A stretch of 44,545 nucleotides of DNA from NCBI RefSeq assembly GCF_003334385.1, contig NZ_QOWN01000035.1; one strand, 5' to 3'. Made by a program: the position numbers and the translations under genes. The DNA is from Escherichia coli (lineage in GTDB: Bacteria > Pseudomonadota > Gammaproteobacteria > Enterobacterales > Enterobacteriaceae). The notes beneath the pieces are model-generated. The model had not been told where the DNA came from. It searched no databases and worked only from the letters and a program-made list of their open reading frames with translations. Below are positions 15,580 to 43,807 of the stretch, piece after piece (within the stretch, counting starts at the first letter, position 1; each line of letters opens with the position of its first letter).

Positions 15580-16817
15580 AATGTAGCTGGCGCGAAGGCA
15601 ATAAGATCCAGTTGCTGGAAAACGGCGAGCAATATTATCCCGCGGTGTTTAAGGCGATTGGCGAGGCACAAGAACGCATCATTCTTGAAACGTTTATCTG
15701 GTTTGAGGATGACGTCGGCAAACAACTGCATGCGGCACTACTGGCAGCAGCGCAACGCGGGGTTAAAGCGGAAGTCTTGCTGGATGGCTACGGTTCGCCG
15801 GATCTCAGCGATGAGTTTGTCAATGAACTGACGGCAGCTGGCGTAGTGTTCCGCTACTACGATCCCCGCCCTCGCCTTTTTGGTATGCGCACCAATGTGT
15901 TTCGCCGGATGCATCGCAAAATTGTGGTGATCGACGCGCGTATAGCCTTTATTGGCGGGCTGAATTACTCCGCCGAGCATATGTCCAGCTACGGTCCAGA
16001 GGCTAAACAGGATTACGCGGTACGCCTTGAAGGGCCGATTGTCGAAGATATTCTCCAGTTTGAGCTGGAAAACCTGCCTGGACAGAGCGCGGCACGACGC
16101 TGGTGGCGACGTCATCACAAAGCGGAAGAGAACCGCCAGCCGGGAGAAGCGCAGGTATTGCTGGTCTGGCGCGATAACGAAGAACATCGCGATGATATTG
16201 AACGCCATTATTTGAAAATGCTCACTCAGGCGCGGCGGGAAGTGATTATCGCCAACGCCTACTTCTTCCCCGGCTATCGATTTTTACACGCCTTGCGTAA
16301 AGCGGCACGGCGCGGGGTGCGGATCAAACTGATCATTCAGGGCGAACCGGATATGCCGATTGTCAGAGTCGGTGCGCGCTTGCTGTATAACTATCTGGTT
16401 AAAGGCGGCGTTCAGGTTTTTGAGTACCGCCGCCGCCCGCTCCACGGCAAAGTGGCATTGATGGACGATCACTGGGCGACAGTAGGGTCCAGTAATCTCG
16501 ATCCGCTCAGTTTGTCACTGAATCTCGAAGCAAATGTCATCATCCACGATCGTCATTTTAACCAGACGCTGCGCGATAATCTGAACGGCATTATTGCCGC
16601 AGATTGTCAGCAGGTGGATGAAACCATGCTGCCCAAACGCACCTGGTGGAACCTGACCAAAAGCGTGCTGGCGTTCCACTTTTTACGCCACTTCCCGGCG
16701 CTGGTTGGCTGGCTTCCGGCACACACGCCACGTCTGGCGCAGGTTGATCCGCCCGCACAACCGACAATGGAAACGCAGGATCGGGTAGAAACTGAAAACA
16801 CGGGGGTAAAACCCTGA
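15576..16817 (+). CDS. clsB: cardiolipin synthase B (phospholipase D family), 413 aa
   Basis: Two HxK(x)4D PLD motifs (HRKIVVID... and HGKVALMDD...); start overlaps the ybhP stop. Confidence 0.85.
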
Positions 16818-17773
16818 TGAGTAAATCACACCCGCGCTGGCGCTTAGCAAAGAAGATCCTCACCTGGCTGTTTTTTATCGCGGTGATTGTGTTGCTGGTG
16901 GTCTACGCCAAAAAAGTGGACTGGGAAGAGGTCTGGAAGGTCATCCGCGACTACAATCGCGTTGCGCTGCTTAGTGCGGTCGGGCTGGTGGTCGTCAGCT
17001 ATCTGATTTACGGCTGCTATGACCTGCTCGCCCGCTTTTACTGCGGTCACAAACTGGCGAAGCGCCAGGTGATGCTGGTGTCGTTTATCTGCTACGCCTT
17101 CAACCTGACGCTCAGTACCTGGGTCGGCGGCATTGGTATGCGCTATCGTTTGTACTCTCGTCTGGGGTTGCCCGGTAGCACTATTACGCGGATTTTCTCG
17201 CTCAGTATTACCACCAACTGGCTGGGCTACATTTTACTGGCAGGGATTATCTTTACCGCAGGCGTGGTGGAGTTGCCGGATCACTGGTATGTCGATCAAA
17301 CTACGCTGCGTATTCTCGGCATTGGCTTACTGATGATTATCGCGGTTTATTTGTGGTTTTGCGCTTTCGCGAAGCACCGCCATATGACCATCAAAGGGCA
17401 AAAGCTGGTGCTGCCTTCATGGAAATTCGCCCTCGCTCAGATGCTGATTTCCAGCGTTAACTGGATGGTAATGGGGGCGATTATCTGGCTGTTACTTGGT
17501 CAAAGCGTGAACTATTTCTTTGTACTGGGCGTGTTACTGGTTAGTAGTATTGCTGGCGTCATCGTGCATATTCCGGCGGGGATCGGTGTGCTGGAAGCGG
17601 TGTTTATCGCACTACTGGCTGGGGAGCATACCTCCAAAGGTACAATTATCGCCGCCCTACTCGCTTACCGTGTGCTGTATTACTTTATCCCACTGCTGCT
17701 GGCGCTGATCTGTTACCTGTTGCTGGAAAGCCAGGCGAAGAAGCTACGGGCGAAAAATGAAGCGGCGATGTGA
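16817..17773 (+). CDS. ybhN: inner membrane protein (lysylphosphatidylglycerol-synthase-like transmembrane domain family), 318 aa
   Basis: Polytopic membrane protein; start overlaps the clsB stop, as in the K-12 operon. Confidence 0.8.
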   Translation: MSKSHPRWRLAKKILTWLFFIAVIVLLVVYAKKVDWEEVWKVIRDYNRVALLSAVGLVVVSYLIYGCYDLLARFYCGHKLAKRQVMLVSFICYAFNLTLSTWVGGIGMRYRLYSRLGLPGSTITRIFSLSITTNWLGYILLAGIIFTAGVVELPDHWYVDQTTLRILGIGLLMIIAVYLWFCAFAKHRHMTIKGQKLVLPSWKFALAQMLISSVNWMVMGAIIWLLLGQSVNYFFVLGVLLVSSIAGVIVHIPAGIGVLEAVFIALLAGEHTSKGTIIAALLAYRVLYYFIPLLLALICYLLLESQAKKLRAKNEAAM

Positions 17774-17808
17774 AGTTTAGTTAAGTTCTTTAGTATGTGC
17801 ATTTACGG

Positions 17809-18522
17809 CTAATGAAAAAAACGCGTATGCCTTTGCCAGACAAGCGTTATAGCTATCGCGGCAAGTATCCCAAAGAAGCCGATAAAATAGTAATAGAGTG
17901 TTAATGCACCTGTAAAAGCGCAACGAACCGGACTCCACAACTCTTCACTATGGCATTTCCCCGCCAATTCAAGGAGCTTATTTCGTCCATGCGAGATAAT
18001 GCCTGACCATAACACAATCATTAAGCAACTTATTACCCAAATGGGCCGTTCACTCATTAATGCCGCATTCACGATGATTACCAGGGCCAACCCTGTCAAC
18101 GTCATCATAATGATAAAACGGTGAGAACCAGGATCAACATTAAATAATAAACCGGCCAGCATACTGATTAAAAACATCGCGCCCGCAGTGCTGAACACGA
18201 TGATAATGGCATATACAGGAACTAAACTTGCAACGACAATCGCCACCAAAGAGAGTAAAAACAGATATATTACGCCCGCGATGGCGGCATTTATCTTGTT
18301 GATATCCTTACTTAAGCCATACATACAAAGTAATAATAACCCTATGGCGACATACATTGGTGGTGAATCATATTTGGTTGCCGTAATTTCGAGATACTTA
18401 GCTCCCCAGGCTAGTCCTGCGGTTGCCACCAAACCTAAAGCGGTAATGAGCCATATACCGTTTAATATCCTGGCCTCGTGCTGAAAATCTAATTTATTGC
18501 TGTTTTGCGAGTATGATTCCAT
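17809..18522 (-). CDS. ybhM: BAX inhibitor-1/YccA-like inner membrane protein, 237 aa
   Basis: Seven hydrophobic segments; paralogous architecture to ybhL; noticeably more AT-rich than its flanks. Confidence 0.7.
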   Translation of the reverse strand: MESYSQNSNKLDFQHEARILNGIWLITALGLVATAGLAWGAKYLEITATKYDSPPMYVAIGLLLLCMYGLSKDINKINAAIAGVIYLFLLSLVAIVVASLVPVYAIIIVFSTAGAMFLISMLAGLLFNVDPGSHRFIIMMTLTGLALVIIVNAALMSERPIWVISCLMIVLWSGIISHGRNKLLELAGKCHSEELWSPVRCAFTGALTLYYYFIGFFGILAAIAITLVWQRHTRFFH

Positions 18523-18689
18523 TCTTTTAGTTATCCTTAGAAAAAATATTAATATTCACCATCAATAAATTTAAAACCACGCATACAAAATACTTTTGCA
18601 TTTATGGATACAGAAAACGCTTCCGCTCGTCCATAAGGCATATTTTATACCTGGTACTTGTTAAGTGTCGTTTTTAGTAAGAAAAAAAT

Positions 18690-18710
18690 CCCGACACATG
18701 GCCGGGATAG
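18690..18710 (-). terminator. Rho-independent terminator candidate for ybhL
   Basis: On the minus strand, hairpin ATCCCG-gccatgtgt-CGGGAT followed by TTTTTTT, just downstream of the ybhL stop. Confidence 0.5.
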
Positions 18711-18726
18711 TGATGGTGAAAAAGAA

Positions 18727-19431
18727 TTAACGGCGGTTGCCGAAGATCCGCAACAACATCAGGAACAGGTTGATGAAGTCCAGATACAAGGTTAACGCGC
18801 CAAGAATGGAATATTTGCGCAGGTTCGACGTGTCGCGGGTATCAATCTGCTCACCCATATTTTTCAGTTTCTGCGTGTCATACGCCGTCAATCCGACAAA
18901 GACAATCACGCCGATGTAGGTAACTGCCCACATCAATGCTTCGCTTTTCAACCAGAAGTTGACCAGCGATGCCAGCACAATGCCGATTAACGCCATAAAC
19001 AGCATATTGCCAAAGCCACTTAAATCGCGCTTCGTGGTGTAACCGTACAGGCTCATTGCGCCGAACATCCCGGCAGTAACGACGAAAGTACTGGCGATAG
19101 AAGCAGCGGTATAGACAATGAATATACTGGAAAGCGTAAGACCCGTCAGCGCCGAATAAAGCATAAAGAGCATCGTCGTTACACCTGCGCTCAGCTTTTG
19201 AATCATCGCTGATAACACAATAACCAATGCTAATTGCGCGATGATCAGACCGATTAAAAAGACACGGTTAGTGAACAACAGCTCCATCACGGCCGCGGAA
19301 TTAGCCGCATACCAGGCAACAAATGCGGTCAGCAACAAGCCAACGGTCATCCAGCCATAGACTTGAGCCATATAAGTTTGCAAGCCAGCCCGGGGTTGTA
19401 CGATTGAATCAGAACGTGGGAATCTGTCCAT
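18727..19431 (-). CDS. ybhL: BAX inhibitor-1 family inner membrane protein, 234 aa
   Basis: Seven-helix membrane protein with the family's conserved C-terminal charged region; K-12 position next to the moa operon. Confidence 0.8.
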   Translation of the reverse strand: MDRFPRSDSIVQPRAGLQTYMAQVYGWMTVGLLLTAFVAWYAANSAAVMELLFTNRVFLIGLIIAQLALVIVLSAMIQKLSAGVTTMLFMLYSALTGLTLSSIFIVYTAASIASTFVVTAGMFGAMSLYGYTTKRDLSGFGNMLFMALIGIVLASLVNFWLKSEALMWAVTYIGVIVFVGLTAYDTQKLKNMGEQIDTRDTSNLRKYSILGALTLYLDFINLFLMLLRIFGNRR

Positions 19432-19567: not shown

Positions 19568-20020
19568 CTACCAGCGTTTTGCCGCCTGCTGATCGCTCTC
19601 CCGAGCTTCAACCCAGCGGTCGCCTTCCGGCGTGGCTTCGCGCTTCCAGAACGGTGCGCGGGTTTTGAGATAATCCATAATAAACTGCCCGGCTTCAAAC
19701 GCACTGCTGCGATGCGCACTGGTGACACCGACAAAAACGATTTCATCGCCCGGCCATAATTCCCCGATGCGGTGAATCACAGTGACGCGCCCCAGCGGCC
19801 AGCGGTTACGCGCTTCATCAACAATTTCTGCCAGTGCTTTTTCAGTCATCCCCGGATAGTGTTCGAGGGTTAATGCGTTGACGCTGTCGCCCAGGTTATG
19901 GTTGCGCACCTTACCAGTAAAGGTGACTACCGCACCGTCTTCGTCACGCTCCGCCAGCCACGGGTACTCTTCTCCTACGCTGAACGGCTGCGGACCAACA
20001 ACAATTTTGGTTTCTGCCAT
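19568..20020 (-). CDS. moaE: molybdopterin synthase catalytic subunit, 150 aa
   Basis: Full-length match to MoaE; last gene of moaABCDE. Confidence 0.9.
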   Translation of the reverse strand: MAETKIVVGPQPFSVGEEYPWLAERDEDGAVVTFTGKVRNHNLGDSVNALTLEHYPGMTEKALAEIVDEARNRWPLGRVTVIHRIGELWPGDEIVFVGVTSAHRSSAFEAGQFIMDYLKTRAPFWKREATPEGDRWVEARESDQQAAKRW

Positions 20021-20021
20021 C

Positions 20022-20267
20022 TTAACCTCCGGTTACCGGCGGGAAGAAAGCTACTTCGTCGCCGTCAGTCAGCGGATGGTCAAAACTCACCAGCGTCTGG
20101 TTGACGGCAGCCAGTAATTTGCCATCTTCCAGCGCCAGCGCCCAGCGATCGCTCTGCGCAGCCATGTGCTGGCGTAACGCTTCAACAGTTGGGAAATCCG
20201 CAGCCACTTCGGTTGCATCTGTTCCCACCAACTCGCGCACCTGGGCGAAAAAAAGAACTTTAATCAT
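20022..20267 (-). CDS. moaD: molybdopterin synthase sulfur-carrier subunit, 81 aa
   Basis: ORF 20022..20330 contains [21 protein letters not shown]...FFPPVTGG with the C-terminal GG typical of MoaD; start taken at the internal Met. Confidence 0.85.
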
Positions 20268-20745
20268 CCGCTTCCACCTTAAAGTCACCCGACTTGCCGC
20301 CGCTCTTCGCCAGCAAACGTACCGGACCAATCACCATATCTTTTTGCACCGCTTTGCACATGTCATAAATGGTCAGCGCCGCCACGGAGGCCGCGGTTAA
20401 TGCTTCCATTTCGACACCGGTTTTCCCGGTCAGGCGGCATAAGGTTTCTATACGCACCCGATTGTGCTCCGGCTCGGCCTGTAAATTGACTTCAACTTTG
20501 CTGAGCATCAGCGGATGACAGAGCGGGATCAGATCCCAGGTGCGTTTTGCCGCCTGAATACCGGCAATACGCGCAGTGGCAAATACGTCGCCTTTGTGGT
20601 GGCGACCATCAATAATCATCGCCAGCGTCTCGCTGCGCATGGTGACAAAGGCTTCCGCCCGCGCTTCACGCACGGTTTCCGCTTTGGCGGAGACATCCAC
20701 CATGTGCGCTTCGCCAGCGGCGTTGATATGGGTCAGTTGCGACAT
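20260..20745 (-). CDS. moaC: cyclic pyranopterin monophosphate synthase accessory protein, 161 aa
   Basis: Full-length match to MoaC; overlaps the moaD start by 8 bp. Confidence 0.9.
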
Positions 20746-20747
20746 AC

Positions 20748-21260
20748 TTATTTCTTCAAATGTGGATGGAAATTACACGGACGCGTACGGGCATCCAGCT
20801 GCGGCGCGATGATATTTTCCCATGCGGTACGGCACGCTTTGGTCGAACCCGGCATGGCGAAAATCAGCGTTTTGTTGGCGACGCCCGCTACCGCACGAGA
20901 TTGCAACGTGGAAGTGCCAATCTCTTCAAACGACAACATCCGGAACACTTCACCAAAACCTTCAACTTCACGGTCGAACAACGGCAGCAATGCTTCGGGA
21001 GCCTGATCACCTTCCGTCAGGCCAGTACCACCCGTAATCAATACCACTTGTACATCGTCGCTGGCGATCCACGCAGATACCTGAGCGCGAATAGCGTAGC
21101 GGTTTTCTTTCACAATGGCTTTATCGACAACGTGATGGCCCGCTTCTTGCGCCGAATCGCGCAGATAGTGACCGGAGGTATCGTCTTCTTCACCGCGACG
21201 ATTAGAAACCGTAAGAATAGCAATACGGGTCGGGATAAATTCAGTGCTTACCTGACTCAT
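20748..21260 (-). CDS. moaB: molybdenum cofactor biosynthesis protein B (MogA/MoaB family), 170 aa
   Basis: MogA/MoaB-fold motif (ITGGTG); operon position. Confidence 0.9.
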
Positions 21261-21281
21261 CTGATCTCTCCTTTTGACGTT

Positions 21282-22271
21282 TTAGCCGCCAATGTACGAT
21301 AAGTTTTGCGTAATACCGGTGTTGTTTTGATGCAGGAAATGGGTCTGTTTCTTCTCCCGCAGCGCCGCTGAAATACGCGCTTCCAGCGCCTGTTGCTGGG
21401 TATCGTCTTCCAGCAGATCGCGCAGGTTAACGCCGCCTTCACCAAACAGGCAGAGATGGAGTTTACCAATGGAGGAAACGCGCAGGCGGTTGCAAGTGGC
21501 GCAGAAGTCTTTTTCATACGGCATGATAAGGCCAATCTCTCCGGCGTAATCTGGATGGCAAAAGACTTGCGCGGGACCGTCGCTGCGTTGACGTAATTGG
21601 TGGATCCAGCCGCGACGCAGTAGCTCGTCACGCAGAACCTGACCAGAGATGTGATGCTTACGGAAGAGCTCGCTGCCCTCGCCCGTTTCCATCAGTTCGA
21701 TGAAACGCAGCTGGATAGGGCGATGCTGGATCCAGTTCAGAAAGGTGTCGAGCTGGTGATGATTAACATCACGCATCAGCACGGTATTGACTTTGACCTT
21801 CTCAAAACCGGCCTCAAATGCAGCATCAATCCCTGCCATGACCTGGTTGAATTTATCCTGCCCGGTAATAGCGTGAAACTGGCGGGCGTCCAGACTGTCG
21901 ACACTGACGTTAATGCCAGTAAGTCCCGCATCGCGCCAGCTCGCCACATCGCGTTCCAGACGGTAACCATTGGTTGTGACCGCAATCTGGCGGATAGCGT
22001 CGTTTTCCCGCACAGCGGCGATGATATCGGTAAAGTCGCGGCGTAAAGACGGCTCTCCTCCTGTCAGGCGCACTTTTTCGGTGCCCAGACTGGCGAAGGC
22101 GCGCGTAACCCGGCGAATTTCATCGACGGTAAGAAAGCCTTTATTGGTGACGCCGCTCGGTTTGTAGCCATCCGGCAGGCAGTAGGTGCAACGAAAGTTA
22201 CACACATCGGTAATCGACAGGCGCAAGTAGTAAAACTTACGCGCAAATGCATCAGTCAGTTGTGAAGCCAT
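21282..22271 (-). CDS. moaA: GTP 3',8-cyclase (radical SAM), 329 aa
   Basis: CNFRCTYC radical-SAM cysteine motif and C-terminal Fe-S cysteines; start taken at [19 protein letters not shown] (ORF 21282..22352 is N-terminally extended). Confidence 0.9.
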
Positions 22272-23767: not shown

Positions 23768-25789
<2,022 letters not shown>

Positions 25790-25863
25790 GAGTCGCTACC
25801 TGAAGGAGTTGGGCGGGCAGGTATGTAATTTTACTCGTCGTACTTAATTATGCCAACAAATTA

Positions 25864-25883
25864 TACTGGATAAAAAAACAGTT
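25864..25883. promoter_or_regulatory. LexA (SOS) box of uvrB
   Basis: tactggataaaaaaacagtt contains CTG-N10-CAG in the uvrB promoter region, as known for uvrB. Confidence 0.7.
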
Positions 25884-26185
25884 CATCACCATAATATTTC
25901 TGATACAGCGTAAACTCCGCTGTCAATCATGAGCAAAATTTACTCTGTGGCGAGATAAAACTCCGGCCTTACCGGGTTATCCCCAAAGCAACGGCTTTTT
26001 TAACATTTGTCAAGATGAGTGATGACAGTTTTATGGCAAGAGATGCCTGTTCAGTGACTGCCATTGCATTTATCTAACCAGTTAAAAAATAAAAGATATT
26101 TCTTTGAGCCGTCTTTAACGCCAATTCGCGTGCAAGCCGCGTATTCTCTCGCTTGCCTCGTGTTTTCTAACTCTAATACACATGG

Positions 26186-26208
26186 TTATCCACAGGAATA
26201 GTGGATAA
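26186..26208. promoter_or_regulatory. Pair of inverted DnaA-box-like 9-mers
   Basis: TTATCCACA ... gtGGATAAct in the uvrB upstream region; the DnaA box consensus is TTATNCACA. Binding is inferred. Confidence 0.4.
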
Positions 26209-26367
26209 CTGTCTCCAGCCCCTATCCCCCGCCGCCTGGGCAATTCCCACATTCGCCGCATGAGGCGGAAGTAAAATTTTTTTCGTGATTATTTTAGAAT
26301 TTAATTGGTTAAATTGCAGTCAATCGAAGACGCGATCTCGCTCGCAATTTAACCAAATACAGAATGG

Positions 26368-27045
26368 CTACAACAAGGCAAGGTTTATGTACTTTCCGAT
26401 TGCCGCATTTTCTGGATTTTCTGCAAGCCAGGGGATCTCTCCCAGCAGCGGCGCGGGAATCATGCGGGTGAGCGTGGTCATATATTCAGCGTGACGTTTT
26501 CCCGGAGGCGTAACATCGTTCGCCACCCAACCCGCCAGAGTCAGTCCGGCGTGTTGTATTACCTGTGCAGTCAACATCGCGTGATTAATACAGCCGAGTT
26601 TCACACCAACTACCAGTATCACCGGCAGTTGTTCCTGTGTTACCCAATCTGCAAAAGTGAAAGTGTCAGAAAGCGGCGTAAACCAGCCGCCAGCACCTTC
26701 CACTAACACCCAGTCAGCCTGTTGTTCAAGCGCGCGTAATCCGGCGCTCATTACCAATGATTCTATCGGTCTGCCCTCTTGCGCGCTGATGATGTGCGGC
26801 GAAGTGGGTTCTGCGAAGGTGTAAGGATTTACTGTTGCGTAATCCAGCTGCAGGCTGCTGTTGCGCTGTAACGCCAGCGCGTCGCTATTGCGTAAACCTT
26901 CCGGGGTCTTTTCGCTGCCAGAGGCGACCGGTTTATAACCTGCCGTCCGGTAGCCTGCTGCCTTTGCGGCTTGTAAAAGTGCACAACTGGCGACAGTTTT
27001 CCCCACTTCGGTATCCGTTCCGGTGACAAAATAACGTTTACTCAC
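26368..27045 (-). CDS. bioD: dethiobiotin synthetase, 225 aa
   Basis: P-loop (GTDTEVGKT); GTG start inferred to give MSKRYFVTG...; last gene of bioBFCD. Confidence 0.9.
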
Positions 27046-31882: not shown

Positions 31883-31890
31883 TCACTCTG

Positions 31891-31913
31891 CCAGATGGCG
31901 CAATGCCATCTGG
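31891..31913 (+). terminator. Perfect hairpin downstream of ybhB, possible terminator
   Basis: CCAGATGGC-gcaat-GCCATCTGG (9-bp stem); the downstream T-tract is weak, so terminator function is uncertain. Confidence 0.4.
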
Positions 31914-31972
31914 TATCACTTAAAGGTATTAAAAACAACTTTTTGTCTTTTTACCTTCCCGTTTCGCTCAAG

Positions 31973-32125
31973 TTAGTATAAAAAAGCTGAACGCGAAACA
32001 TTAAAAACCATTAATATCAATGTGTTACAATATCTTTAGTCTAAAAAATAGACTACATGATGCTACAAAACACAACATATCCAGTCACTATGAATCAACT
32101 ACTTAGATGGTATTAGTGACCTGTA
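31973..32125. other. Prophage attR: lambda-type core plus P arm
   Basis: Core TTAGTATAAAAAAGC is the reverse complement of the lambda core GCTTTTTTATACTAA. The host side matches attB (cgctcaag); the phage side resembles the lambda P arm (cagtcactatgaatcaactacttagatggtattagtgacctgtaacagagcattagcgcaagg) with scattered substitutions. Confidence 0.85.
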
Positions 32126-32612
32126 ACAGAGCATTAGCGCAAGGTGATTTTTTGTCTTCTTGCGCTAATTTTTTGTCAAACACATTACGTCGTTTGCTGA
32201 ATTTACAACCATGCTCAGTATCTCGATAAGCGCAGAGAAATGATGCAATGGTGGGCGGAATGGCTTGATGGGAAGGCTGAGTAATTAATCTTTAATCAGA
32301 GGGTAACAATGCATGGCTCAGTGAACTAAGCCAATCATTTGTGATCTCCAATTGTTAATCTTATTAGTTCTAGATACTTGATTTATGCCATGATGCTTGT
32401 AGATTAGAAAGCAGTAGACTATACAACACTGCGGTCAAATAATTATCAAGCATAATCACGGTATACACATTTTTTTGATAGCGTAAGGATAGTGAGCCAT
32501 CGATGCCATATTCAATATTTATGCAATTTAAGCATGGTTTATATACACTAATTTTCTTAGTGCCCACAAAATCTTTGATTGTACAAAAAACACAGGGGTA
32601 ATGGAGATTTTT

Positions 32613-33779
32613 ATGTTTGACGGATTTAATGGCTTTTTAATTGCTTCTTTATCGGTGATTACTTCACTTTCTGTTGCAAGAATATTTGTCACAGAAACAC
32701 ATTTATCACCTATCAAAGGAAGGAGTGAATCAATTGATGGGCTTAGAGGATTTCTTGCTTTAATGGTTTTCCTTCATCATTCCAGTTTCTGGTGGCAATA
32801 CATACATACTGGGGTTTGGTCTGATCCTGATTCGTTATTTTATACTAATATTGGAAAAATAGCTGTTATTTTCTTTTTTATGATTACAGGCTTCTTGTTC
32901 TTCGGGAAATTGATTTCGAATAAATCAGTAAATTGGGAAGATTTATTTTGGTCAAGAATAATGAGACTAACACCTATGTATCTGGTTTCGTTATCTCTAC
33001 TATTCATAATTGTGTTCTATGTTTCTGATTGGAAAATTAACACAGGAATTGACAATCTCATAATATCTATGGCGAGATGGGTTCCTTTTTCTTTCCTTGG
33101 AATGCCTGATGTTAACGGTCTTCACAAGACGTCGCTTATCATGGCCGGAGTTCCGTGGTCACTTGTTTATGAATGGTTTTTTTATTTATCTCTTCCTTTT
33201 ATGGCTTTTATAATGAGAAGAGACAAATTTAATACTTACACAATTCTTAGTATTGCGAGTGTATTTGCTTTTATTTTCTATCCATCATTAAAAATACATA
33301 TTTTATCATTTGTTTTTGGTTATCTGGCAGCAAAAATAAATCACAAACTGTCTAACGGCTTGCCTTTCAATAAAATATTATCAAGCTTATTCGTCATCGT
33401 TATCTTATGTGTAACTTGTTTTTTAATTCCAAATCCTTACAATCCAATAACAATATCACTCTGTGGTATTGCATTTATTATGATATCAAATGGATGCGAT
33501 ATTTTTGGAGTTCTTAAGATAAAAACCTGTCAAGTTTTTGGAGAAGCTACATATAGCATGTATCTTCTACATGGCATTATACTTTTTATAACATTTAAAA
33601 TAATACTTCCGGTTAGCTATGTTAATCAAATTAACAGCCTTGTATTTTCAGCTATTATTATAATCCTCTCTGGGTTTATCACGCTTATATCATTACTATG
33701 TTTTAGATATATTGAGACACCGTGTAGTAAGTTTAAAAAATTTAATGTACTAACATACACAAGAAGAAAACTTCAGTAA
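32613..33779 (+). CDS. acyltransferase-3 family membrane protein, probable O-antigen O-acetyltransferase (Oac-like), about 388 aa
   Basis: About 10 hydrophobic segments and the AT3 motif R...HH (IDGLRGFLALMVFLHHSS); very AT-rich; sits between the tailspike and att like serotype-conversion genes of P22-like phages. Start at 32613 preferred (GGAG 6 nt upstream) over 32601. Confidence 0.7.
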   Translation: MFDGFNGFLIASLSVITSLSVARIFVTETHLSPIKGRSESIDGLRGFLALMVFLHHSSFWWQYIHTGVWSDPDSLFYTNIGKIAVIFFFMITGFLFFGKLISNKSVNWEDLFWSRIMRLTPMYLVSLSLLFIIVFYVSDWKINTGIDNLIISMARWVPFSFLGMPDVNGLHKTSLIMAGVPWSLVYEWFFYLSLPFMAFIMRRDKFNTYTILSIASVFAFIFYPSLKIHILSFVFGYLAAKINHKLSNGLPFNKILSSLFVIVILCVTCFLIPNPYNPITISLCGIAFIMISNGCDIFGVLKIKTCQVFGEATYSMYLLHGIILFITFKIILPVSYVNQINSLVFSAIIIILSGFITLISLLCFRYIETPCSKFKKFNVLTYTRRKLQ

Positions 33780-33814
33780 AACCACCTCACAAATGAGATG
33801 GTTGTTGGTAATAA

Positions 33815-33838
33815 AAAGGCGGGCGTGGGCTCGCCTTT
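33815..33838. terminator. Bidirectional Rho-independent terminator between convergent acyltransferase and tailspike genes
   Basis: aaaaaGGCG-ggcgtgggct-CGCCtttt: GC stem flanked by an A-run and a T-run, usable from either strand. Confidence 0.55.
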
Positions 33839-36175
33839 TCAGATTGGATAATTACTTACTCTAACATCAGCAAAACTAGTTGTTCCTGTCAAGGAAATAT
33901 CCATGCGTTCATCACAAGCAGGAGCAAGAAAAACCTCTACAGCTACACATTCTGATCTTTTAACATGATATATTGCCTGACGCTCAAGCCACGAATTATC
34001 AGATAATAATTTTATTGCAGTATTAGATAACGAATTACCTGTAGAATCCAATTCGCGAAAAATGACCGCCGATGATATTGATGTTTCTGATAACGTCCAT
34101 AGTCTTACATAGACAGCACTTCGTTGAGCTACTCGAAGTGTTGCCACTAATAAACTCTGTACTGATGCGGTATTCTTATCGTTAAGAGTGAATGCATAAG
34201 GCGTACCTACAGGCTTTGTAGTTGCATCTGTTTTCTCTGGCGCAATAGATATAACAGTCTGAAAAAATCTATCCTGATTAGCTAGAATATGACCAGCTAT
34301 GGAACGCATCGGTAGAGGGTTAGTACTATGGACAGCATCACTTCTTCCAACACGAAAACCACCGCCTGTATTCTGGCTATTGGCAGTGATAAATACGTCT
34401 TGGTTATTGTCTACAAACACTTCACCTGAACACGAACTAGTTATGATCTTACCTACAGAGTTAAATCTTGGTTTTATCTCTTGATTGTCAATTCCGCTAA
34501 TTAGTCCAGGCACAAATTCGAATGATACACCAACACCGTTACAGCTAACAGCCGTGATATCTTCAACGTTGATGTCATACCCATTGACAATGCGTACCGC
34601 ATTATTGTTTACCCTTTCGGCATAGACATTTTTAATTCGAATGTGCTGTGATTGGAAGTATGTAGACTCAGAAGGATACGAGTAATTAGTCACGAATATA
34701 CCAGCCAAGCCAGCCACACTGGTTGCTGCAGCAACATACTTTCCACCAAGAACATCAATATTCTCTCCTTGAATTTCAAGAAAATTTTTAGTTGCTTTTG
34801 ATTTTCCTGTTTGAATTCCGATATTGCCAGCAAGGAATACACCACGGCGTGAACCATCCGTAGAGTGATGGCAATCGTTCATGTCGAATGTTTTGCATGC
34901 ATCGATAACCCAATTTTCGCAACCTCTCTTAAAGTCATTCAATGTACGATGGCCGAAAGCAGTGTTGCCGAAACTGAAGATGTTTTTAATGGTATATGTA
35001 CCGTATTCGCCAGGTGAATCAATAGAGCCATTCATACACTTAAATGCATTGAATCCAACAGCGGTAAGCATTGGGTCTGTTCCCTCTGATGAACAATACA
35101 AATAATTAATACCATCAATCATTCCACCATTAGTTGTGTATCCTTCCCATGCTTCATGTGGGCAGTTTTTGAAATGACATCTTAAAGCAGTAATATTGCG
35201 ACCAATGGCACCGTTATTGAAATGCCAGCAGAATGCGCGAATAATCTTCTGCGGCGCAATGTTATTTATTTCGTAACCGTCTTGGTATTGTCCATCAAAA
35301 CAAATATCCTGCAGCATCGCAAAATATAGATCCTTGTCAGGGTTCTTACGGATGAACCAAGAGTAATAGCCAAAGCCATTATTCTCAACGTCTTGCTTTG
35401 TTAGTGAGATTGGTCTGATAGTAGTACTTGACTTACCTGCACCAATCCAATGAAACCAGTCGCCAATTTGCACACTACCACTAAACGAGATCACATCTAT
35501 ACCTCTAAAATCTAGAGGAACCCTTTTATATTCTGATAATATTTGTAATTTATTTATTACCGATGCGCAGTCAACTCCGCTCTGAATGTAGCGACTGCAC
35601 ATGATCGCATCATTGAAATTAGAACCATCCATGACGCATAACCATTGACTATTAAGATTTGGATTTTCTGTTGGCGCTACAGTTTTCGGAAGGGAACCAA
35701 GCCATTGGTAATAAAGTCCATCAGTGTATTTAAGGACCTGTTTTCTATTGGTAATAGTATATCCAGACGCAAAATCGCCATCAATTATTCGACTGTATTC
35801 TGATATTTCGAAATTTCCCTTTGCCCACAAGGAAAACTGATCAGGATCATACTTCAGAACATTCGGAAAATAGAACTGCTGCGCTCCATATGCATCATAA
35901 ACAGCCATCGAATGACCTTGCACAGTTACAAACTTGGCAATCTGCCCGTTATATACAGGATATCCAGCAGCGTTAATGATGATTGGTTGCGATACAGGAA
36001 CATGAGAGCCGTCTTCGTTCTCCACATAAACCTGGATCTGGTTTTCAGTATTTACCGGATCAGTGTCAATTTTTCCGATATAAATCTTTCCATTAGCTAC
36101 GGCTTTAAAAGAACGAGCCATAGTGAAGAGTTGCGAAGGCATGCTTACCACAACATTTGCGGTGATATCTGACAT
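33839..36175 (-). CDS. tailspike protein: P22 gp9-like N-terminal head-binding domain plus divergent receptor-binding domain, about 778 aa
   Basis: From the second ATG (GGAG 7 nt upstream): [42 protein letters not shown]...[15 protein letters not shown]...LKYDPDQFS closely resembles the P22/HK620 tailspike N-terminus; the remaining ~650 aa are divergent and AT-rich. Confidence 0.85.
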
Positions 36176-36270
36176 TTCATTGCTCCAGACGAATGATATG
36201 ATGCAACCATGATGTGATTGCATACCGAAATGGTACTATTGAGTATTTATCCAGTAGGTTACGATGCCAT

Positions 36271-36288
36271 TCCACCCAACTGGTGAGG
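36271..36288. promoter_or_regulatory. Imperfect palindrome, candidate Mnt operator in the tailspike/mnt divergent region
   Basis: tCCACC-caact-GGTGag resembles the half-sites of the P22 Mnt operator (TCCAC...GTGGA). Inference only. Confidence 0.3.
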
Positions 36289-36296
36289 CATCAAGG

Positions 36297-36557
36297 ATGT
36301 ACAGCAAATACGACGAGGCGCAGTTTCACTTGAGACTTCCGCATGAACTCCACGCGAAAATTAAGCAGCGTGCGAAGATGAATAACAGGTCGCTGAACTC
36401 AGAGATAATTGCAGCGATGGAGGAATCATTGGATAAACAAAGCTCTGCATCAGTTTACATTGACGATGCAGAGCGTATGGCAGAACAACAATCTGATATG
36501 GTTAAGAAAATTGTCTTTGATACGCTCAAGAAGCTATATAAAAAAGACAGCAGATAA
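36297..36557 (+). CDS. mnt: Mnt-like ribbon-helix-helix repressor, about 86 aa
   Basis: QFHLRLPHELHAKIKQRAKMNNRSLNSEIIAAMEESL...NDAERMAEQQSDMVKKIVFDTLKKLYKK aligns with recalled P22 Mnt (HFNFRMPMEVREKLKFRAEANGRSMNSELLQIV...DAERLADEQSELVKKMVFDTLKDLYKK). Start at the internal Met preferred; the ORF could begin at 36264. Confidence 0.8.
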   Translation: MYSKYDEAQFHLRLPHELHAKIKQRAKMNNRSLNSEIIAAMEESLDKQSSASVYIDDAERMAEQQSDMVKKIVFDTLKKLYKKDSR

Positions 36558-36646
36558 CCATCCGTTACGGAGGATTTATGCACAGAGATATGCTGAATAT
36601 TGCGTTCTACATATTTGGTTTTTACACGTTCCTGGTGTTTGCGAAG

Positions 36647-39040
36647 CTATTCTGACAGCGCATCAGACTTAGCCCCCTGAGTCAGGGCGTTAATGGCCTT
36701 TTGTGCCTGCTGCATGGCTTTCTCGAACGCTGTTGATCCGCGTGGGGTGTTTGCCATTCGGAGCATTGCATTTCTGAATGGCTCGCTCTCATAGGCGCGA
36801 GTAAGAAGTCCGTAGCTTACCGCTGCGCCAGTTGTCGCAGGGTTCATTGCCGTCCCATACCCGATAATGAACGGGATGGTTTGCTGCCCTGTTGGTGTTG
36901 TTACTGCCGCTTTTGCAGCCTGCTGCGTGGATTGCAGGTAGTTTTTCAATCCTTTCAGATAAGCAGCGTCCTGCCCCTTAAATGTGATGCCAGTCTGGTT
37001 TTGCAGGATGTTAAGCTGCCGAAGGAACTGGTCAGGGGATCCGCCAGATTTCTCCATCGCCTTTCCAATGATGCCATTGCGCATTTGCGCCCTGCCAACA
37101 CGACCAACTGAGTTATACAGCGTCTTAATTTCCGATTTGTTCTTGCTGAATAGCATGTTGTTGACAACTTCCGGCGTCAGATCGCCTTTCATGAGAACAT
37201 TCTTCAGCCTGGTATTCTTTAGTTTCGCGGCTTCGTCAGCGTAGACGGCATTGGCCTGCTGATATTTACGGAGAGTATCGTTGCCAAGATTCTGACCAAT
37301 GGCACCATTGATATCGTCGGTCATTGCCTTGTAAACGCGCTGAATGGCAGCATCGGAACGGTTTGGTAACACTGGTCGCTCACCCTTCACGTCCATTCTG
37401 AACTGGCTGCGCAGATCGCTTAATTGCTTCAAATCCAGATTTACCGGACCATCAGGACCAGCATTGCGAACAAGCTCATCACGATATGACTGAAGTTTTG
37501 AAATTGTCTCGTTATCAGCGACCTTACCAAGCTTCTGCAGATTAGATATTTCTGTATCAATCTGCTGAATTGCTCGCGCTGGCTGAATGTTTACTCCAGC
37601 CATAGCATTCTGAACCTGCTCCAGTCGATTACCGGCGGCACGACGAATTCCTGATGTTTTCGCTTTAAGGCTGTCAATAACAACCGCTGGATCATACTCA
37701 CCGAATTTATCGGCAAATCTCTGCACCAACTGGCTTCTCGCTTCCTGTTGCGTTGCTCTCATTCCGCTTGTGCCAGCCAGGGGGATATTTTCTGCTGTAG
37801 TCTGCGCCATTTTCCCGACGCGGGAAGTAGGCTGTAACAGGTCTGTGGTGTGCAGAGGAACTCCTTCACGCTCTGCAAACCTGATAGCCTGTTGAGCTTC
37901 TGGTGCTATCGAACCACGAACACCACGATAAGCAGAACCTAATCCACGTCCGGCAGCGTTAATAGCACCGCCAGCCAGCACACCAACGCCTAAATCGGTG
38001 GCGAGTGCTTCCGCATCATCTTTCGCACTGTTTGCAGCAAGTGATCCAACTGCGTTTTCTGCTAGAAGGCGAGTTGCCCCCTGAGCAATTCGACCAGCAA
38101 GTGTTGGTGACTGTGTTGCCGCTCTCTCAACGCCAGCAGGAGTGAGGTAAGGCAATGCTTCAGCAAATACCCTTCCCTCTGTCGTTTGTGGAGTCAGCGC
38201 GCCTTGCTGAAGGCCAAAGTCCTGCTCTAATCCCTGCGTTGTTACTCGTGGTGCTGGTTGATATGTACCATCGCCAATGCCGAGTTTACCTCCAGCCCAA
38301 GCCGCCGCGCTTGTTACAGCATCAGTGAGTTCAGCAGGTATGTTCGCTACGTTGATTCCTGCCTGTAGTAAGCCGCGCCCGGTTTCAGCAAGTCCATTAC
38401 CAAGGTCAGACATTATTCCGCCTTGCTGCTGAACAGGTTTCGGTGCGACAGAACTTACGGGTTGAGGTGGCTGCTGACTGGCTGCCTGCTGCTCAATCTG
38501 AGCAAATGGATTATTTGGGTCTGACTGCACGCCTGATGCCGATACTTGTTCGGATGACTGTGCTTCCAGTTGTGCAAACGGGTTGTTAGGGTCTTGCTGA
38601 GGATGTACCTTTGCAGAGGTGGCGCGCTGTTCGACTGTTGAGTCTGTCACCGGGTCACCCGCCCATTGAGCAAAGCGATCATCAACGTAACCGCGGCCTT
38701 CAGATCCTGGCGTATATTCACCACGCTTTGCCTTCATAACGTTGCCGGGACCGTCGTGATAAGCCTGAAGAGCGTCACGCCAGTTACCAAACTGCTGGTA
38801 CATCTTTGCCAGATAGCGCGCGCCAGCGTCAGCCTGATATTCGGGGTTTTGCATTTGCTCATCGGTATAACCCATATCACGCCATGTCCCAGGCATGACC
38901 TGAGTCAATCCTACAGCCCCGGCGGAGCTTACTGCGGCAGGGTTGTAAGAAGACTCCTTGGCACCCAGTGCAGTCATCAACCCTTCTGGCACACCGTAAC
39001 GTGCGCCAGCCTGCTCTAACAAATCACGGTAATTAGCCAT
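36647..39040 (-). CDS. virion ejection/internal protein at the P22 gp16 position, with an N-terminal lytic transglycosylase (SLT) domain, 797 aa
   Basis: N-terminus carries an SLT-like catalytic motif (GAKESSYNPAAVSSAGAVGLTQVMPGTW...YLAKMY), followed by a tandem DPNNPFAQ(L/I)E repeat and a long Ala/Gln-rich region; last gene of the ejection-protein block. Confidence 0.7.
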   Translation of the reverse strand: MANYRDLLEQAGARYGVPEGLMTALGAKESSYNPAAVSSAGAVGLTQVMPGTWRDMGYTDEQMQNPEYQADAGARYLAKMYQQFGNWRDALQAYHDGPGNVMKAKRGEYTPGSEGRGYVDDRFAQWAGDPVTDSTVEQRATSAKVHPQQDPNNPFAQLEAQSSEQVSASGVQSDPNNPFAQIEQQAASQQPPQPVSSVAPKPVQQQGGIMSDLGNGLAETGRGLLQAGINVANIPAELTDAVTSAAAWAGGKLGIGDGTYQPAPRVTTQGLEQDFGLQQGALTPQTTEGRVFAEALPYLTPAGVERAATQSPTLAGRIAQGATRLLAENAVGSLAANSAKDDAEALATDLGVGVLAGGAINAAGRGLGSAYRGVRGSIAPEAQQAIRFAEREGVPLHTTDLLQPTSRVGKMAQTTAENIPLAGTSGMRATQQEARSQLVQRFADKFGEYDPAVVIDSLKAKTSGIRRAAGNRLEQVQNAMAGVNIQPARAIQQIDTEISNLQKLGKVADNETISKLQSYRDELVRNAGPDGPVNLDLKQLSDLRSQFRMDVKGERPVLPNRSDAAIQRVYKAMTDDINGAIGQNLGNDTLRKYQQANAVYADEAAKLKNTRLKNVLMKGDLTPEVVNNMLFSKNKSEIKTLYNSVGRVGRAQMRNGIIGKAMEKSGGSPDQFLRQLNILQNQTGITFKGQDAAYLKGLKNYLQSTQQAAKAAVTTPTGQQTIPFIIGYGTAMNPATTGAAVSYGLLTRAYESEPFRNAMLRMANTPRGSTAFEKAMQQAQKAINALTQGAKSDALSE

Positions 39041-40372
39041 TTACTGCCCCAAAGATGGAAGATATCCGTAGCGATTAATGAAGTCGATTGACAGCTCGGG
39101 GTGCTGCTTCAGGTAATCTATAGAAGCCTGAGGCGCTTCCACTCGCTTGATACCGTTTTGCTGAACGTACTTACCAACCGCCTCATTACGCTTCTGGTTG
39201 AGCGTGTTCAGGATGACGCCAGCGTTGCGACGAAAGGACTCCTCGCTCTGCGAGTTCTGCAGCGAACCAACAGCCTGGTCGAGCTTTTTGCCCTCGGCAT
39301 CAGAAAGTGCGCCCATGCCTCGCATGGCCTGAACCGCTGTCAGGTATGCTTGTGATTTAAAGGTATCAAGTCGTGCCTGAGTGTCTGCAGCCTGTGAGCC
39401 TGGAACGTTGGGGATTACTCCACGTAAGCCTGTAATGCTCTTAAGTGAAGGAGAACTAACGATATCGTTCAGAGTGAACATGCTGGTTGTGATGGTGTTG
39501 ATGCCGTCTTTGTAGCCATCATTTAGCGCTTGCTGCTTCTGCTGCAACTGCTGGTTGTTGGCTGCTATGCGGCTCTGTATTTCCTGGCGCTTCAGGTCGT
39601 TAGTTTCTGCTGATAGCATCCGGTCAAGGCGCTTATTTTCGTTGTTAATGCGGTTTGTTTCTGCGTCCAGATTAATGCGCTGCTGACCTAAATTCGCCTG
39701 GATATCTTGTCCGCGCATTGTGATTGCCTGATTCCGAGCGGCGGTTTGCGAATCCAGATCCTGACCGCGCATGGTAACCTGTCGACCCTGCATTTTATCC
39801 TGTAGGTCAAAGTATTTTTCGGGCCCGAGACTGTTCATCCCCAGGTGATCGACAAATTCGCCGAACTGCCGCGGGTTCTGTTGGTACATCTGAGCGACGT
39901 CATGAGGATTAACGCCAACACGAGCTAACTCACCGGCGTTGTTTTGCAGCCATGATTGCATTGCTTCTGGAGAAGATGACGCAAGACGTGCGCCAGCCGC
40001 TAATGTACCGATAGAATTACGCTGGTCTTCATCAATGAATCCCATGCCTTTACGAACGGATTCAATCTGGTCTGGATATTGAGTAGCCAACTGACGCAAA
40101 GCACCGCGATCACCAGAAGCATAAGCATTAGCGTATGCCTGCTGAAATTCTTTCTGCCGCTGAGCCTGCTTTTCCTGCTGAAACACCCCCGCAATACCTG
40201 AAAGGCCTTGCAAAGCAGTCAGCCCAACATTGTTAGCGCCTGAACGCTCAATATCATTGTTCTGCCTGATAAGCTGAAGCGTATTGCCGATGTCATTTAC
40301 GCTCGGAGCGTTTGAGTTGACGCCGCCGATACCAGCCAACAATCCGCCGTTTGTTCCTTGCCAAGTAGCCAT
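39041..40372 (-). CDS. ejection protein at the P22 gp20 position, 443 aa
   Basis: Called by position and size (P22 gp20 is of similar length) and by Gln/Asn-rich low-complexity composition; stop abuts the start of the next gene (coupled). Confidence 0.55.
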   Translation of the reverse strand: MATWQGTNGGLLAGIGGVNSNAPSVNDIGNTLQLIRQNNDIERSGANNVGLTALQGLSGIAGVFQQEKQAQRQKEFQQAYANAYASGDRGALRQLATQYPDQIESVRKGMGFIDEDQRNSIGTLAAGARLASSSPEAMQSWLQNNAGELARVGVNPHDVAQMYQQNPRQFGEFVDHLGMNSLGPEKYFDLQDKMQGRQVTMRGQDLDSQTAARNQAITMRGQDIQANLGQQRINLDAETNRINNENKRLDRMLSAETNDLKRQEIQSRIAANNQQLQQKQQALNDGYKDGINTITTSMFTLNDIVSSPSLKSITGLRGVIPNVPGSQAADTQARLDTFKSQAYLTAVQAMRGMGALSDAEGKKLDQAVGSLQNSQSEESFRRNAGVILNTLNQKRNEAVGKYVQQNGIKRVEAPQASIDYLKQHPELSIDFINRYGYLPSLGQ

Positions 40373-40381
40373 GATTACCCC

Positions 40382-41074: not shown

Positions 41075-41076
41075 GG

Positions 41077-43798: not shown

Positions 43799-43807
43799 TT
43801 ATTCACC

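Follow-up and report, generated by a model that had tools for sequence, protein, structure and literature searches.

AT-rich ybhM is probably part of a small, lineage-restricted cassette between ybhL and ybhN in Escherichia coli

The stretch of the Escherichia coli chromosome considered here (44,545 nucleotides, referred to below as the window) contains one gene, ybhM, whose base composition sets it apart from its neighbors, and the question is what made it so. The GC content of ybhM is 42.6–42.7%, compared with 53.2% for the non-prophage backbone of the window (positions 1–31882), 52.4% for ybhN, 48.7–48.9% for ybhL and 51.1% for the window as a whole. The intergenic region 18523–18726 has 32.8% GC (67% AT), the lowest value among 13 intergenic regions of at least 60 bp between assigned gene models. 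The initial annotation had described both the gene and this region as AT-rich, and both descriptions hold; it had rated the signal as weak, and here it underestimated both its strength (relative to 27 conserved genes in the window, ybhM has z-scores of -5.75 in total GC and -3.44 in GC3) and the complexity of the locus. Of all 714-nt segments in the window, 11% match the AT-richness of ybhM, nearly all of them within a P22-like prophage (31.9–44.5 kb), while in the backbone the fraction is 1.85%, almost all of it overlapping ybhM itself. Elsewhere in the backbone, no 918-nt segment reaches the AT-richness of ybhM taken together with its spacer. The parts of the locus are as follows.

17809..18522, minus strand: ybhM coding sequence, an intact ORF of 237 aa; divergent Bax1-I inner-membrane protein with seven predicted helices
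18523..18726, minus strand: ybhL–ybhM spacer, with the ybhL terminator, the ybhM promoter and, inside it, a published H-NS site
18688..18708, minus strand: predicted intrinsic terminator of ybhL, stem-loop ATCCCGGCCATGTGTCGGGAT followed by a T-run (consensus scan and sequence)
18644..18671, minus strand: predicted sigma-70 promoter of ybhM, -35 ACGACA (18671–18666), 16-nt spacer, -10 TATAAA (18649–18644) (sequence and scan)
18556..18680, minus strand: 125-nt segment specific to the locus form that has ybhM only (BLASTN against loci L081 and L088)
17780..18685, no strand assigned: stretch absent from the divergent Escherichia genome L001, which has an empty site (BLASTN breakpoints, TBLASTN)
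18096..18408, minus strand: segment lost in an internal deletion of about 313 nt, which leaves a 129-aa remnant
18727..19431, minus strand: ybhL, a conserved canonical BI-1/YetJ-like paralog directly upstream of ybhM
16817..17773, plus strand: ybhN, the conserved flank convergent with ybhM

Only 35 nt (17774–17808) separate ybhM from ybhN. In L001, ybhL and ybhN abut, and the stretch absent there gives the extent of the cassette. No mobility ORF was found between ybhL and ybhN and no tRNA gene in 14–23 kb, and the direct repeats flanking the ybhM site are short and at chance level; hence the classical signature of a genomic island is absent. No RNA family matched anywhere in 16.5–20 kb in an Rfam scan (E ≤ 1), and the AT-rich spacer therefore corresponds to no known sRNA or riboswitch.

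YbhM matches the Pfam family PF01027 (Bax1-I; i-Evalue 1.1e-20) with residues 19–222, covering model positions 3–205 of 207; 55% of its residues are hydrophobic, and the AlphaFold2 model has seven helices with a mean pLDDT of 83.7. Judged by the full-length profile match and the predicted helices, YbhM is a divergent member of the Bax1-I (BI-1/YccA) family. Its identity to the neighboring YbhL is 25%. D185 and D218 of YbhL align with the YD and LDF motifs of Bacillus subtilis YetJ (BsYetJ, PDB 4PGR), and YbhL keeps both aspartates. The family alignment shows Gly and Tyr in YbhM at these two sensor columns, in TM6 and TM7, and none of the YbhM-like proteins keeps both residues. YbhM had no match among NCBIfam models (E ≤ 0.01), including the YccA model NF007765, to which YbhL scores just 23 bits, where the cut-off is 353. 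Neither did a phmmer search of PDB sequences return any relative of YbhM, YetJ included, nor was YetJ among the significant structural matches of the AlphaFold2 model. YbhM therefore resembles the BI-1/YetJ/YccA proteins in its length of about 235 aa, its seven predicted helices and its full-length HMM match, but it is devoid of the di-aspartyl pH sensor present in YetJ and YbhL, and its non-synonymous rate is about ten times that of YbhL.

The distribution of ybhM is narrow. All 68 word-index matches to YbhM came from Escherichia or Shigella wherever the organism was named, and phmmer, run exhaustively over 1.84 billion representatives, gave only 97 matches. Ten full-length relatives, 25–35% identical to YbhM, outscored YbhL-type proteins, the next-best matches; the named ones all belong to Enterobacteriaceae, and phmmer found no relative outside this family closer to YbhM than YbhL-type proteins are. 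By these sequence searches, close homologs of YbhM are restricted to Escherichia and Shigella. In Citrobacter, Enterobacter, Klebsiella, Lelliottia, Trabulsiella, Pantoea and others the gap between ybhL and ybhN is about 50–200 nt and, by TBLASTN, contains no gene, indicating that ybhM is absent from the syntenic junction in most other genera of Enterobacterales examined.

More distant YbhM-like genes occur directly 3' of ybhL in Salmonella, Kluyvera, Pseudocitrobacter, Phytobacter and a metagenomic contig (L097). The Phytobacter gene has a GC content of 0.60, and AT-richness is consequently not universal in the YbhM-like subfamily. In Superficieibacter the YbhM-like gene lies at another site, 3.3 kb from a vgrG gene, and the 864-aa protein encoded between the two had no family match, which left no effector to be assigned. 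A neighbor-joining tree of the family with bootstrap was poorly supported, too poorly to separate duplication from import.

To characterize selection, we compared six alleles, picked partly for their divergence, which gave a dN/dS ratio of 0.28 for ybhM and 0.019–0.035 for clsB, ybhN, ybhL and moaE (0.035 for ybhN and 0.024 for ybhL). The dS values are similar, 0.17 for ybhM and 0.10–0.16 for the four other genes (0.15–0.16 for clsB, ybhN and ybhL). The ratio for ybhM is well below one, which implies that purifying selection is still acting, and the agreement of its dS with that of the flanks implies vertical inheritance of the gene within E. coli, as for core DNA.

We consider it likely that the AT-richness of ybhM stems from membership in a small cassette between ybhL and ybhN that is lineage-restricted, fast-evolving, weakly constrained and often lost. 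A flexible block of DNA would sit at the junction of the two conserved genes, and ybhM belongs to a fast-evolving YbhM-like subfamily that has lost the di-aspartate pH sensor. In this window a single cassette gene would be left, while other Escherichia have up to five or none, or carry a deleted or IS-disrupted ybhM. The AT-richness itself may reflect foreign-type DNA, or relaxed, AT-biased evolution, combined with weak selection on codon usage. YbhM may act through protein–protein interactions in the membrane and not as a pH-gated channel. The two readings offered in the initial annotation, older horizontal acquisition and membrane-protein codon bias, are partly borne out. An old, lineage-restricted origin, be it by transfer from outside or by tandem duplication of ybhL, is supported by the distribution, the empty site and dS; membrane-protein bias proves insufficient (see below). 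Observations that speak against the cassette include the GC-rich Phytobacter copy, the absence of mobility genes, the dS equal to that of the flanks, the YbhM-like genes 3' of ybhL and the rank of YbhL-type proteins as next-best matches.

The last two of these fit an ancient tandem duplication of ybhL better than an import. The gene would then have arisen in situ, lost its channel function and come under relaxed constraint, with AT-biased mutation lowering GC3 and with repeated loss in most genera. We regard this as a possible but clearly less probable account. It is favored by the position of ybhM directly 3' of ybhL in the same orientation, by the occupation of the same position in the genera listed above, by YbhL-type proteins being the nearest outgroup by phmmer score, by the tenfold increase of dN/dS at normal dS, by the loss of both sensor aspartates and by the absence of mobility signatures. 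However, unrelated AT-rich genes accompany the YbhM-like genes (a DUF3969 gene, a gene for a 73-aa protein and Sip4-like genes), and in Salmonella a three-gene module is present at a second site, 3' of guaA, which, with the Superficieibacter copy elsewhere, indicates that the YbhM-like family moves. Moreover, the YbhM-like proteins of Escherichia and Salmonella are 24–30% identical, whereas their YbhL proteins are 87% identical, so that simple orthology of the former is hard to sustain. Duplication of ybhL overlaps with the cassette explanation rather than excluding it.

The variability of the locus was analyzed in 5,426 complete E. coli genomes. The flanking genes are nearly always present (ybhL in 5,425 and ybhN in 5,421 genomes), and ybhM is found at a coverage of at least 80% in 4,788 genomes (88%) and at least as a remnant in 5,400 (99.5%). 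A single common internal deletion accounts for 545 genomes (10%), counted as those in which the coverage of a junction-spanning query is at least 80%. In 749–793 genomes (about 14%) an 840-nt stretch with a second YbhM-like gene, ybhM2, stands where the 125-nt segment lies in the ybhM-only form; compared with the ybhM2 stretch as a candidate remnant of it, this segment showed no significant similarity, and it is 72% identical to E. albertii. The ybhM3/DUF3969 genes were found in 29 genomes. One to four extra AT-rich genes occur at the ybhM site in other strains, and loci L088–L090, some of them labeled just "Escherichia sp.", harbor a five-gene array (ybhM2, ybhM, ybhM3, the DUF3969 gene with 30% GC and the 73-aa gene) with gene GC contents of 0.30–0.44. 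States without ybhM look like deletions or replacements. In E. albertii, a 553-aa ORF lying between ybhL and a ybhM fragment was considered as a toxin candidate and rejected, as it encodes a phosphoethanolamine transferase of the EptA/CptA family.

Such losses could also mean that ybhM is a decaying, non-functional pseudogene whose AT-richness and variability are signs of erosion. Apart from the common deletion, this is suggested by IS1 or IS5 insertions in ybhM in some strains, HB101/RR1 among them, by many truncated YbhM protein clusters and by the raised dN/dS. On the other side, the window has an intact, full-length ORF, most genomes retain at least 80% of the gene, the dN/dS ratio is well under one, the promoter is bound in vitro by RNA polymerase holoenzyme (PMC3946193), and transcript levels in O157 Sakai rose 4.6- to 5.1-fold on lettuce (PMC6891304). 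Erosion thus appears an improbable explanation. Given the loss of the sensor aspartates and the fact that at least 10% of strains can do without the gene, ybhM should not be regarded as functionally equivalent to YbhL, YccA or BI-1.

Composition could also follow from the protein, ybhM being ordinary core DNA that encodes an Ile-, Leu- and Phe-rich polytopic membrane protein. Indeed, its amino acids alone predict 49.7% GC, compared with about 54–55% for soluble neighbors, and the equally hydrophobic ybhL is also low at 48.9%. We measured the codon-level effect as GC3 against the expectation conditioned on amino acid composition. The observed GC content (42.7%) is seven points below the predicted one, so that membrane-protein bias covers only about one third of the deficit, and GC3 is 0.449 where 0.600 is expected. 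Five comparable membrane-protein genes nearby, ybhN, ybhL, ybhQ, ybhS and ybhR, have GC3 values of 0.62–0.71 at hydrophobic fractions of 0.49–0.55 (0.55 for ybhM); the GC3 of ybhM lies below this range. The initial annotation had named ybhL among the neighbors less AT-rich than ybhM; the total GC of ybhL is itself somewhat lower than that of its own neighbors, but its GC3 (0.618) is normal, so that this deficit of ybhL is the ordinary membrane-protein effect. The composition of ybhM is atypical beyond the effect of the encoded protein, the compositional mark of an islet. In addition, the non-coding spacer is still more AT-rich than the gene, and the restricted distribution and high dN/dS would be left unexplained. 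The comparison of GC3 with the amino acid expectation largely refutes membrane-protein bias as the sole cause, which we consider very unlikely.

Recent horizontal gain by the strain or its lineage as a strain-specific islet, to which the AT-rich composition and the E. coli and other Escherichia genomes without ybhM might point, is refuted by the near-universal presence of the gene or its remnants and by its flank-like dS (0.17 versus 0.15–0.16 in clsB, ybhN and ybhL), and has hardly any probability left given that E. albertii and L088–L090 also carry ybhM or its fragments and that the ybhM-less states resemble deletions and replacements. Presence in 99.5% of E. coli genomes and dS equal to that of the flanks together place the origin of ybhM before the radiation of E. 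coli.

The cassette gene would be transcribed from its own sigma-70 promoter, located 3' of the ybhL terminator. The predicted promoter agrees with that found by genomic SELEX with RpoD; the study, which covered RpoD and H-NS, lists "ybhL > HNS > ybhM, ACGACA-16-TATAAA" (Shimada et al. 2014, PMC3946193). The H-NS site in the spacer comes from this in-vitro SELEX. The AT content of the spacer, 67%, is compatible with silencing of ybhM by H-NS, which may operate in vivo; given the very AT-rich spacer and the reported H-NS binding, expression of ybhM is probably low or conditional.

In these features the locus resembles the H-NS-bound, AT-rich xenogeneic islets of E. coli and Salmonella: it is AT-rich and phylogenetically restricted, it occupies a fixed site between conserved genes with variable gene content, and an H-NS site has been reported by SELEX in its promoter spacer. 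It differs from them in having no integrase, tRNA gene or flanking repeats, in its tiny size (one gene in this window), in its cargo, a paralog of the adjoining core gene that may have arisen in situ, and in being near-universal in E. coli rather than strain-specific.

The linkage of YbhM-like genes in Salmonella raises the question of function. Sip4 of Serratia marcescens is an inner-membrane immunity protein with four TM segments that acts against the pore-forming T6SS effector Ssp4 (PMC12669606). Downstream of the YbhM-like gene in Salmonella come genes for two proteins with 3–4 TM segments, whose sole NCBIfam match is Sip4 (NF053812), at E = 3.5e-8 to 3e-4 and 21–34 bits, far under the curated cut-off of 240. 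The Sip4-like genes beside the YbhM-like gene have 37–46% GC. The three-gene module is kept at two loci, next to ybhL and downstream of guaA, and the copy in the guaA island adjoins a gene of the TsiV immunity family. This linkage suggests, speculatively, an immunity-like role for YbhM. For YbhM itself, no similarity to Sip4 or known immunity families was detected (NCBIfam, PADLOC), PADLOC gave no defense-system match for YbhM or its Salmonella partners, and a homology search with the Salmonella Sip4-like partner returned only its own cluster. No Sip4-like partner genes of E. coli ybhM were found. Neither the surroundings of ybhM in the window nor the Escherichia arrays contain a gene for an effector, VgrG or PAAR protein, and no effector gene adjoins ybhM in any locus examined.

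Orphan immunity arrays of T6SS and CDI systems provide a further comparison. Like them, the ybhM site has tandem, diverged paralogous genes for small membrane proteins, presence/absence polymorphism, raised dN/dS and AT-richness; unlike Sip4 and such arrays, YbhM lacks Sip4 similarity, an effector neighbor and, in E. coli, Sip4-like partners. The hints for immunity comprise the tandem diverged paralogs, the polymorphism, the tenfold rise in dN/dS, the loss of the sensor and the Salmonella linkage. It would be a bold and rather doubtful step to propose that YbhM-like proteins form an unrecognized, BI-1-derived class of immunity-type or protective inner-membrane proteins against membrane-depolarizing toxins that competitors deliver (for example, pore-forming T6SS effectors of the Ssp4 family), the ybhL–ybhN junction being an orphan-immunity island of Enterobacteriaceae and the K-12-type ybhM its last remaining cassette.

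In summary, our analysis offers a concrete account of why one gene in a much-studied part of the E. coli chromosome has an odd composition. An AT-rich cassette of this kind is an ordinary genome feature and modestly interesting, and without the Sip4 link ybhM would be an ordinary weakly constrained, H-NS-associated, lineage-specific gene. If the link holds, the ybhL–ybhN site would become a candidate reservoir of genes conferring resistance to pore-forming T6SS toxins, and the uncharacterized E. coli gene ybhM would gain a first function. The junction of ybhL and ybhN appears as a small hot spot in which several enterobacterial genera carry arrays of fast-evolving membrane-protein genes.

The initial annotation described ybhM and the region upstream of it as more AT-rich than the neighboring genes, which agrees with the base composition of the locus:

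16817-17773, plus strand: ybhN, GC 52.4%
17809-18522, minus strand: ybhM (237 aa), GC 42.6%
18523-18726: spacer between ybhL and ybhM, GC 32.8%
18727-19431, minus strand: ybhL, GC 48.7%
Whole window: GC 51.1%

ybhM falls short of the mean for 27 conserved window genes by 5.75 SD in GC and by 3.44 SD in GC3, and the spacer has the lowest GC among 13 intergenic regions compared. Of the 714-nt windows taken over the full stretch, 11% equal ybhM in AT-richness, these being located in a prophage; in the chromosomal backbone the fraction is 1.85%, almost all of them overlapping ybhM, and outside the locus no backbone window of 918 nt is as AT-rich as ybhM with its spacer. The AT-richness of ybhM is real. 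Membrane-protein codon bias, proposed as one cause, explains a part of it and is not sufficient: given the amino acid sequence of ybhM and the synonymous codon usage of the other window genes, the expected GC is 49.7% and GC3 is 0.600, whereas 42.7% and 0.449 are observed, so that about 4 of the 11-12 missing GC points are due to protein composition and the rest to codon choice, while GC3 is 0.62-0.71 in five neighboring membrane-protein genes (ybhN, ybhL, ybhQ, ybhS and ybhR) with hydrophobic fractions of 0.49-0.55 (ybhM, 0.55).

From left to right, the window, a segment of an E. coli chromosome, carries dinG, rhlE, cecR-ybhGFSR, ybhQ, ybhP-clsB-ybhN (plus strand), ybhM, ybhL and moaEDCBA (all minus strand), ybhK, uvrB, the bio operon and ybhB. 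Almost all its other AT-rich stretches sit in a P22-like prophage (31883-44545, reaching the right end of the window), which adjoins ybhB and bioA in the lambda attachment region:

32601-33779: O-acetyltransferase, GC 0.31
33839-36223: tailspike
36647-41074: DNA-transfer and ejection proteins
41077-41532: head-morphogenesis protein, 151 aa
41532-42380: tail needle
42380-44269: head-closure and adaptor proteins

The sole other backbone stretch approaching the AT content of ybhM in 714-nt windows is the uvrB-bioD intergenic region (25790-26367, GC 0.42; stretch flagged, 25650-26540).

YbhM matches the whole Pfam Bax1-I model (BI-1/YccA family, E = 1.1e-20) and shares 25% identity with YbhL, the product of the adjoining upstream gene on that strand; neither an NCBIfam model nor a PDB sequence matched it. 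YbhL aligns to YetJ of B. subtilis (4PGR), the conserved YD and LDF motifs included. In the family alignment both aspartates are kept in every canonical member, YbhM has Gly and Tyr at these positions, and no YbhM-like protein (a fast-evolving Bax1-I subfamily) has both. As both sensor aspartates are gone, the alignment makes it unlikely that YbhM forms a pH-gated Ca2+/H+ leak channel as YetJ does. Its AlphaFold2 model has seven helices (pLDDT 83.7), and fold searches with this model did not significantly recover YetJ.

An index of 5.8 billion proteins contained 68 YbhM matches, many of them truncated, from Escherichia, Shigella or E. albertii wherever the source names the organism. Only 97 matches at E <= 1e-3 came from an exhaustive phmmer search over 1.84 billion representatives. 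Outside the YbhM cluster, ten full-length relatives (25-35% identity to YbhM) outscored YbhL-type proteins, which came next. Exact look-ups covered nine of these ten: two Escherichia types (ybhM2 and ybhM3), two Salmonella enterica types, relatives from Kluyvera georgiana, Superficieibacter and Pseudocitrobacter, and two clusters from metagenomic assemblies only.

The distribution across Enterobacterales was followed in 80 loci fetched with YbhL (one genome per species), in which MoaE, YbhL, YbhM, YbhN and ClsB were placed by tblastn. In most loci retaining ybhN, a gene-free gap of about 50-200 nt separates it from the convergent ybhL; genera with this empty junction include Citrobacter, Enterobacter, Lelliottia, Trabulsiella, Pseudescherichia, Pantoea and Erwinia. 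In Klebsiella oxytoca the two genes are 308 nt apart and the gap holds no ORF of at least 60 aa, and a divergent Escherichia (L001) has a clean empty site lacking window positions 17780-18685. The next gene downstream of ybhL is YbhM-like in Kluyvera, Pseudocitrobacter, Phytobacter and Salmonella, with two more membrane-protein genes after it in Salmonella; a metagenomic contig (L097) has two YbhM-like copies there plus small ORFs, and unrelated insertions occupy the junction in other genera. In Kluyvera georgiana (L091 5150-7257) ybhQ directly follows ybhL and the YbhM-like gene, ybhN, clsB and ybhP being absent. The longest Escherichia form, found in some strains (L088 5455-8299; also L089 and L090), is ybhL-ybhM2-ybhM-ybhM3-DUF3969-73aa-ybhN, the GC of the cassette genes being 0.44, 0.41, 0.36, 0.30 and 0.39, respectively. 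Strain GDSC2227PM (L083) has only the DUF3969 and 73-aa genes left. The E. albertii junction holds a phosphoethanolamine transferase gene, a ybhM fragment, ybhM3 and DUF3969; in NBRC 107761 the transferase gene (L002 6063-7724; 553 aa, EptA/CptA-like, Sulfatase domain, GC 0.37) is an insertion that separates ybhL from a C-terminal remnant of ybhM. Given these varied contents, the junction is a small hot spot, of which the window carries a reduced form.

Variation within the species was counted in 5,426 complete E. coli genomes:

ybhM: some match in 5,400, at least 80% coverage in 4,788, below 95% identity in 1,256
ybhL: at least 80% coverage in 5,425, below 95% identity in 182
ybhN (3' 714 nt): at least 80% coverage in 5,421, below 95% identity in 70
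ybhM2: 749-793
ybhM3/DUF3969 part: 29
Common internal ybhM deletion of about 313 nt (window 18096-18408): 545

This deletion has an 11-nt overlap at its junction (cf. L082 2886-2896) and leaves a 129-aa ORF. IS1 and IS5 interrupt ybhM in some genomes, the laboratory strain RR1/HB101 among them.

Nei-Gojobori estimates were obtained from six alleles, a small sample picked partly for divergence:

ybhM: dN 0.049, dS 0.172, dN/dS 0.28
clsB: dN 0.0028, dS 0.146, dN/dS 0.019
ybhN: dN 0.0057, dS 0.161, dN/dS 0.035
ybhL: dN 0.0038, dS 0.158, dN/dS 0.024
moaE: dN 0.0019, dS 0.099, dN/dS 0.019

Among these six alleles amino acid change is about 10 times faster in ybhM than in its flanks, and some purifying selection still acts on it. 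Since its dS equals that of the flanks, within E. coli ybhM has been inherited with its neighbors and is not a recent import. Together with the junction being empty in most genera examined, this supports the suggestion of an older, lineage-specific origin, which is broadly right.

The spacer contains two signals:

18708-18688: terminator-like hairpin and T-run after ybhL
18671-18644, minus strand: promoter, ACGACA-16 nt-TATAAA

The latter is identical to the "constitutive" RpoD promoter reported in this spacer by Shimada et al. 2014 (PMC3946193), where an H-NS binding site was also flagged by genomic SELEX. No Rfam family matched in the ybhM region. One transcriptome study found ybhM induced 4.6- to 5.1-fold in O157 Sakai on lettuce (PMC6891304); beyond these reports the literature on ybhM is almost empty.

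The AT-richness probably marks ybhM as part of a cassette array at the ybhL/ybhN junction that is weakly constrained, lineage-restricted and H-NS-associated. Two origins are possible and mutually compatible, and the family tree does not discriminate between them. The gene may be an ancient tandem duplicate of ybhL that then underwent relaxed, AT-biased evolution, as suggested by its adjoining ybhL, the recurrence of this position in several genera, the place of YbhL as closest outgroup and the lack of mobility signatures. It may also have been imported as flexible DNA, which is consistent with the similar AT-richness of unrelated cassette neighbors and Salmonella modules and with YbhM-like copies at other loci.

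One such case is Superficieibacter electus (L098 7001-12275), where the YbhM-like gene lies away from the ybhL site; downstream of it are the gene for an 864-aa protein that matches no family and, at a distance of 3.3 kb, a vgrG (Phage_GPD) gene. In Salmonella enterica the three-gene module occurs at two loci, the ybhL/ybhN junction and an island downstream of guaA, with 35-43% identity gene by gene (L084 6001-7908; L085 6001-7900), and a TsiV immunity-family gene lies beside one of them. The two 3-4-TM proteins encoded after the YbhM-like gene match a single NCBIfam model, Sip4 (E = 3.5e-8 to 3e-4), with scores that fall far short of its curated cut-off. Sip4 resides in the inner membrane and provides immunity to Ssp4, a Serratia T6SS effector that forms pores (PMC12669606). 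In their tandem paralogues, polymorphism, raised dN/dS and Sip4/TsiV/vgrG neighborhood, the YbhM-like genes resemble an orphan-immunity array; however, no effector adjoins them at any locus examined, YbhM matches no immunity family, and E. coli lacks the Sip4-like partner genes of Salmonella, so we regard this role as speculative and rather improbable. The Ssp4 study (PMC12669606) reports that Pseudomonas fluorescens lacking moaC fares slightly better when attacked with Ssp4, and in Enterobacteriaceae the moa operon (moaEDCBA, 19568-22271 in the window) borders the cassette site; this is probably a coincidence.

The ybhM feature is a small AT-rich variable islet with a divergent paralogue, and the functional lead that it offers is modest in interest and testable.
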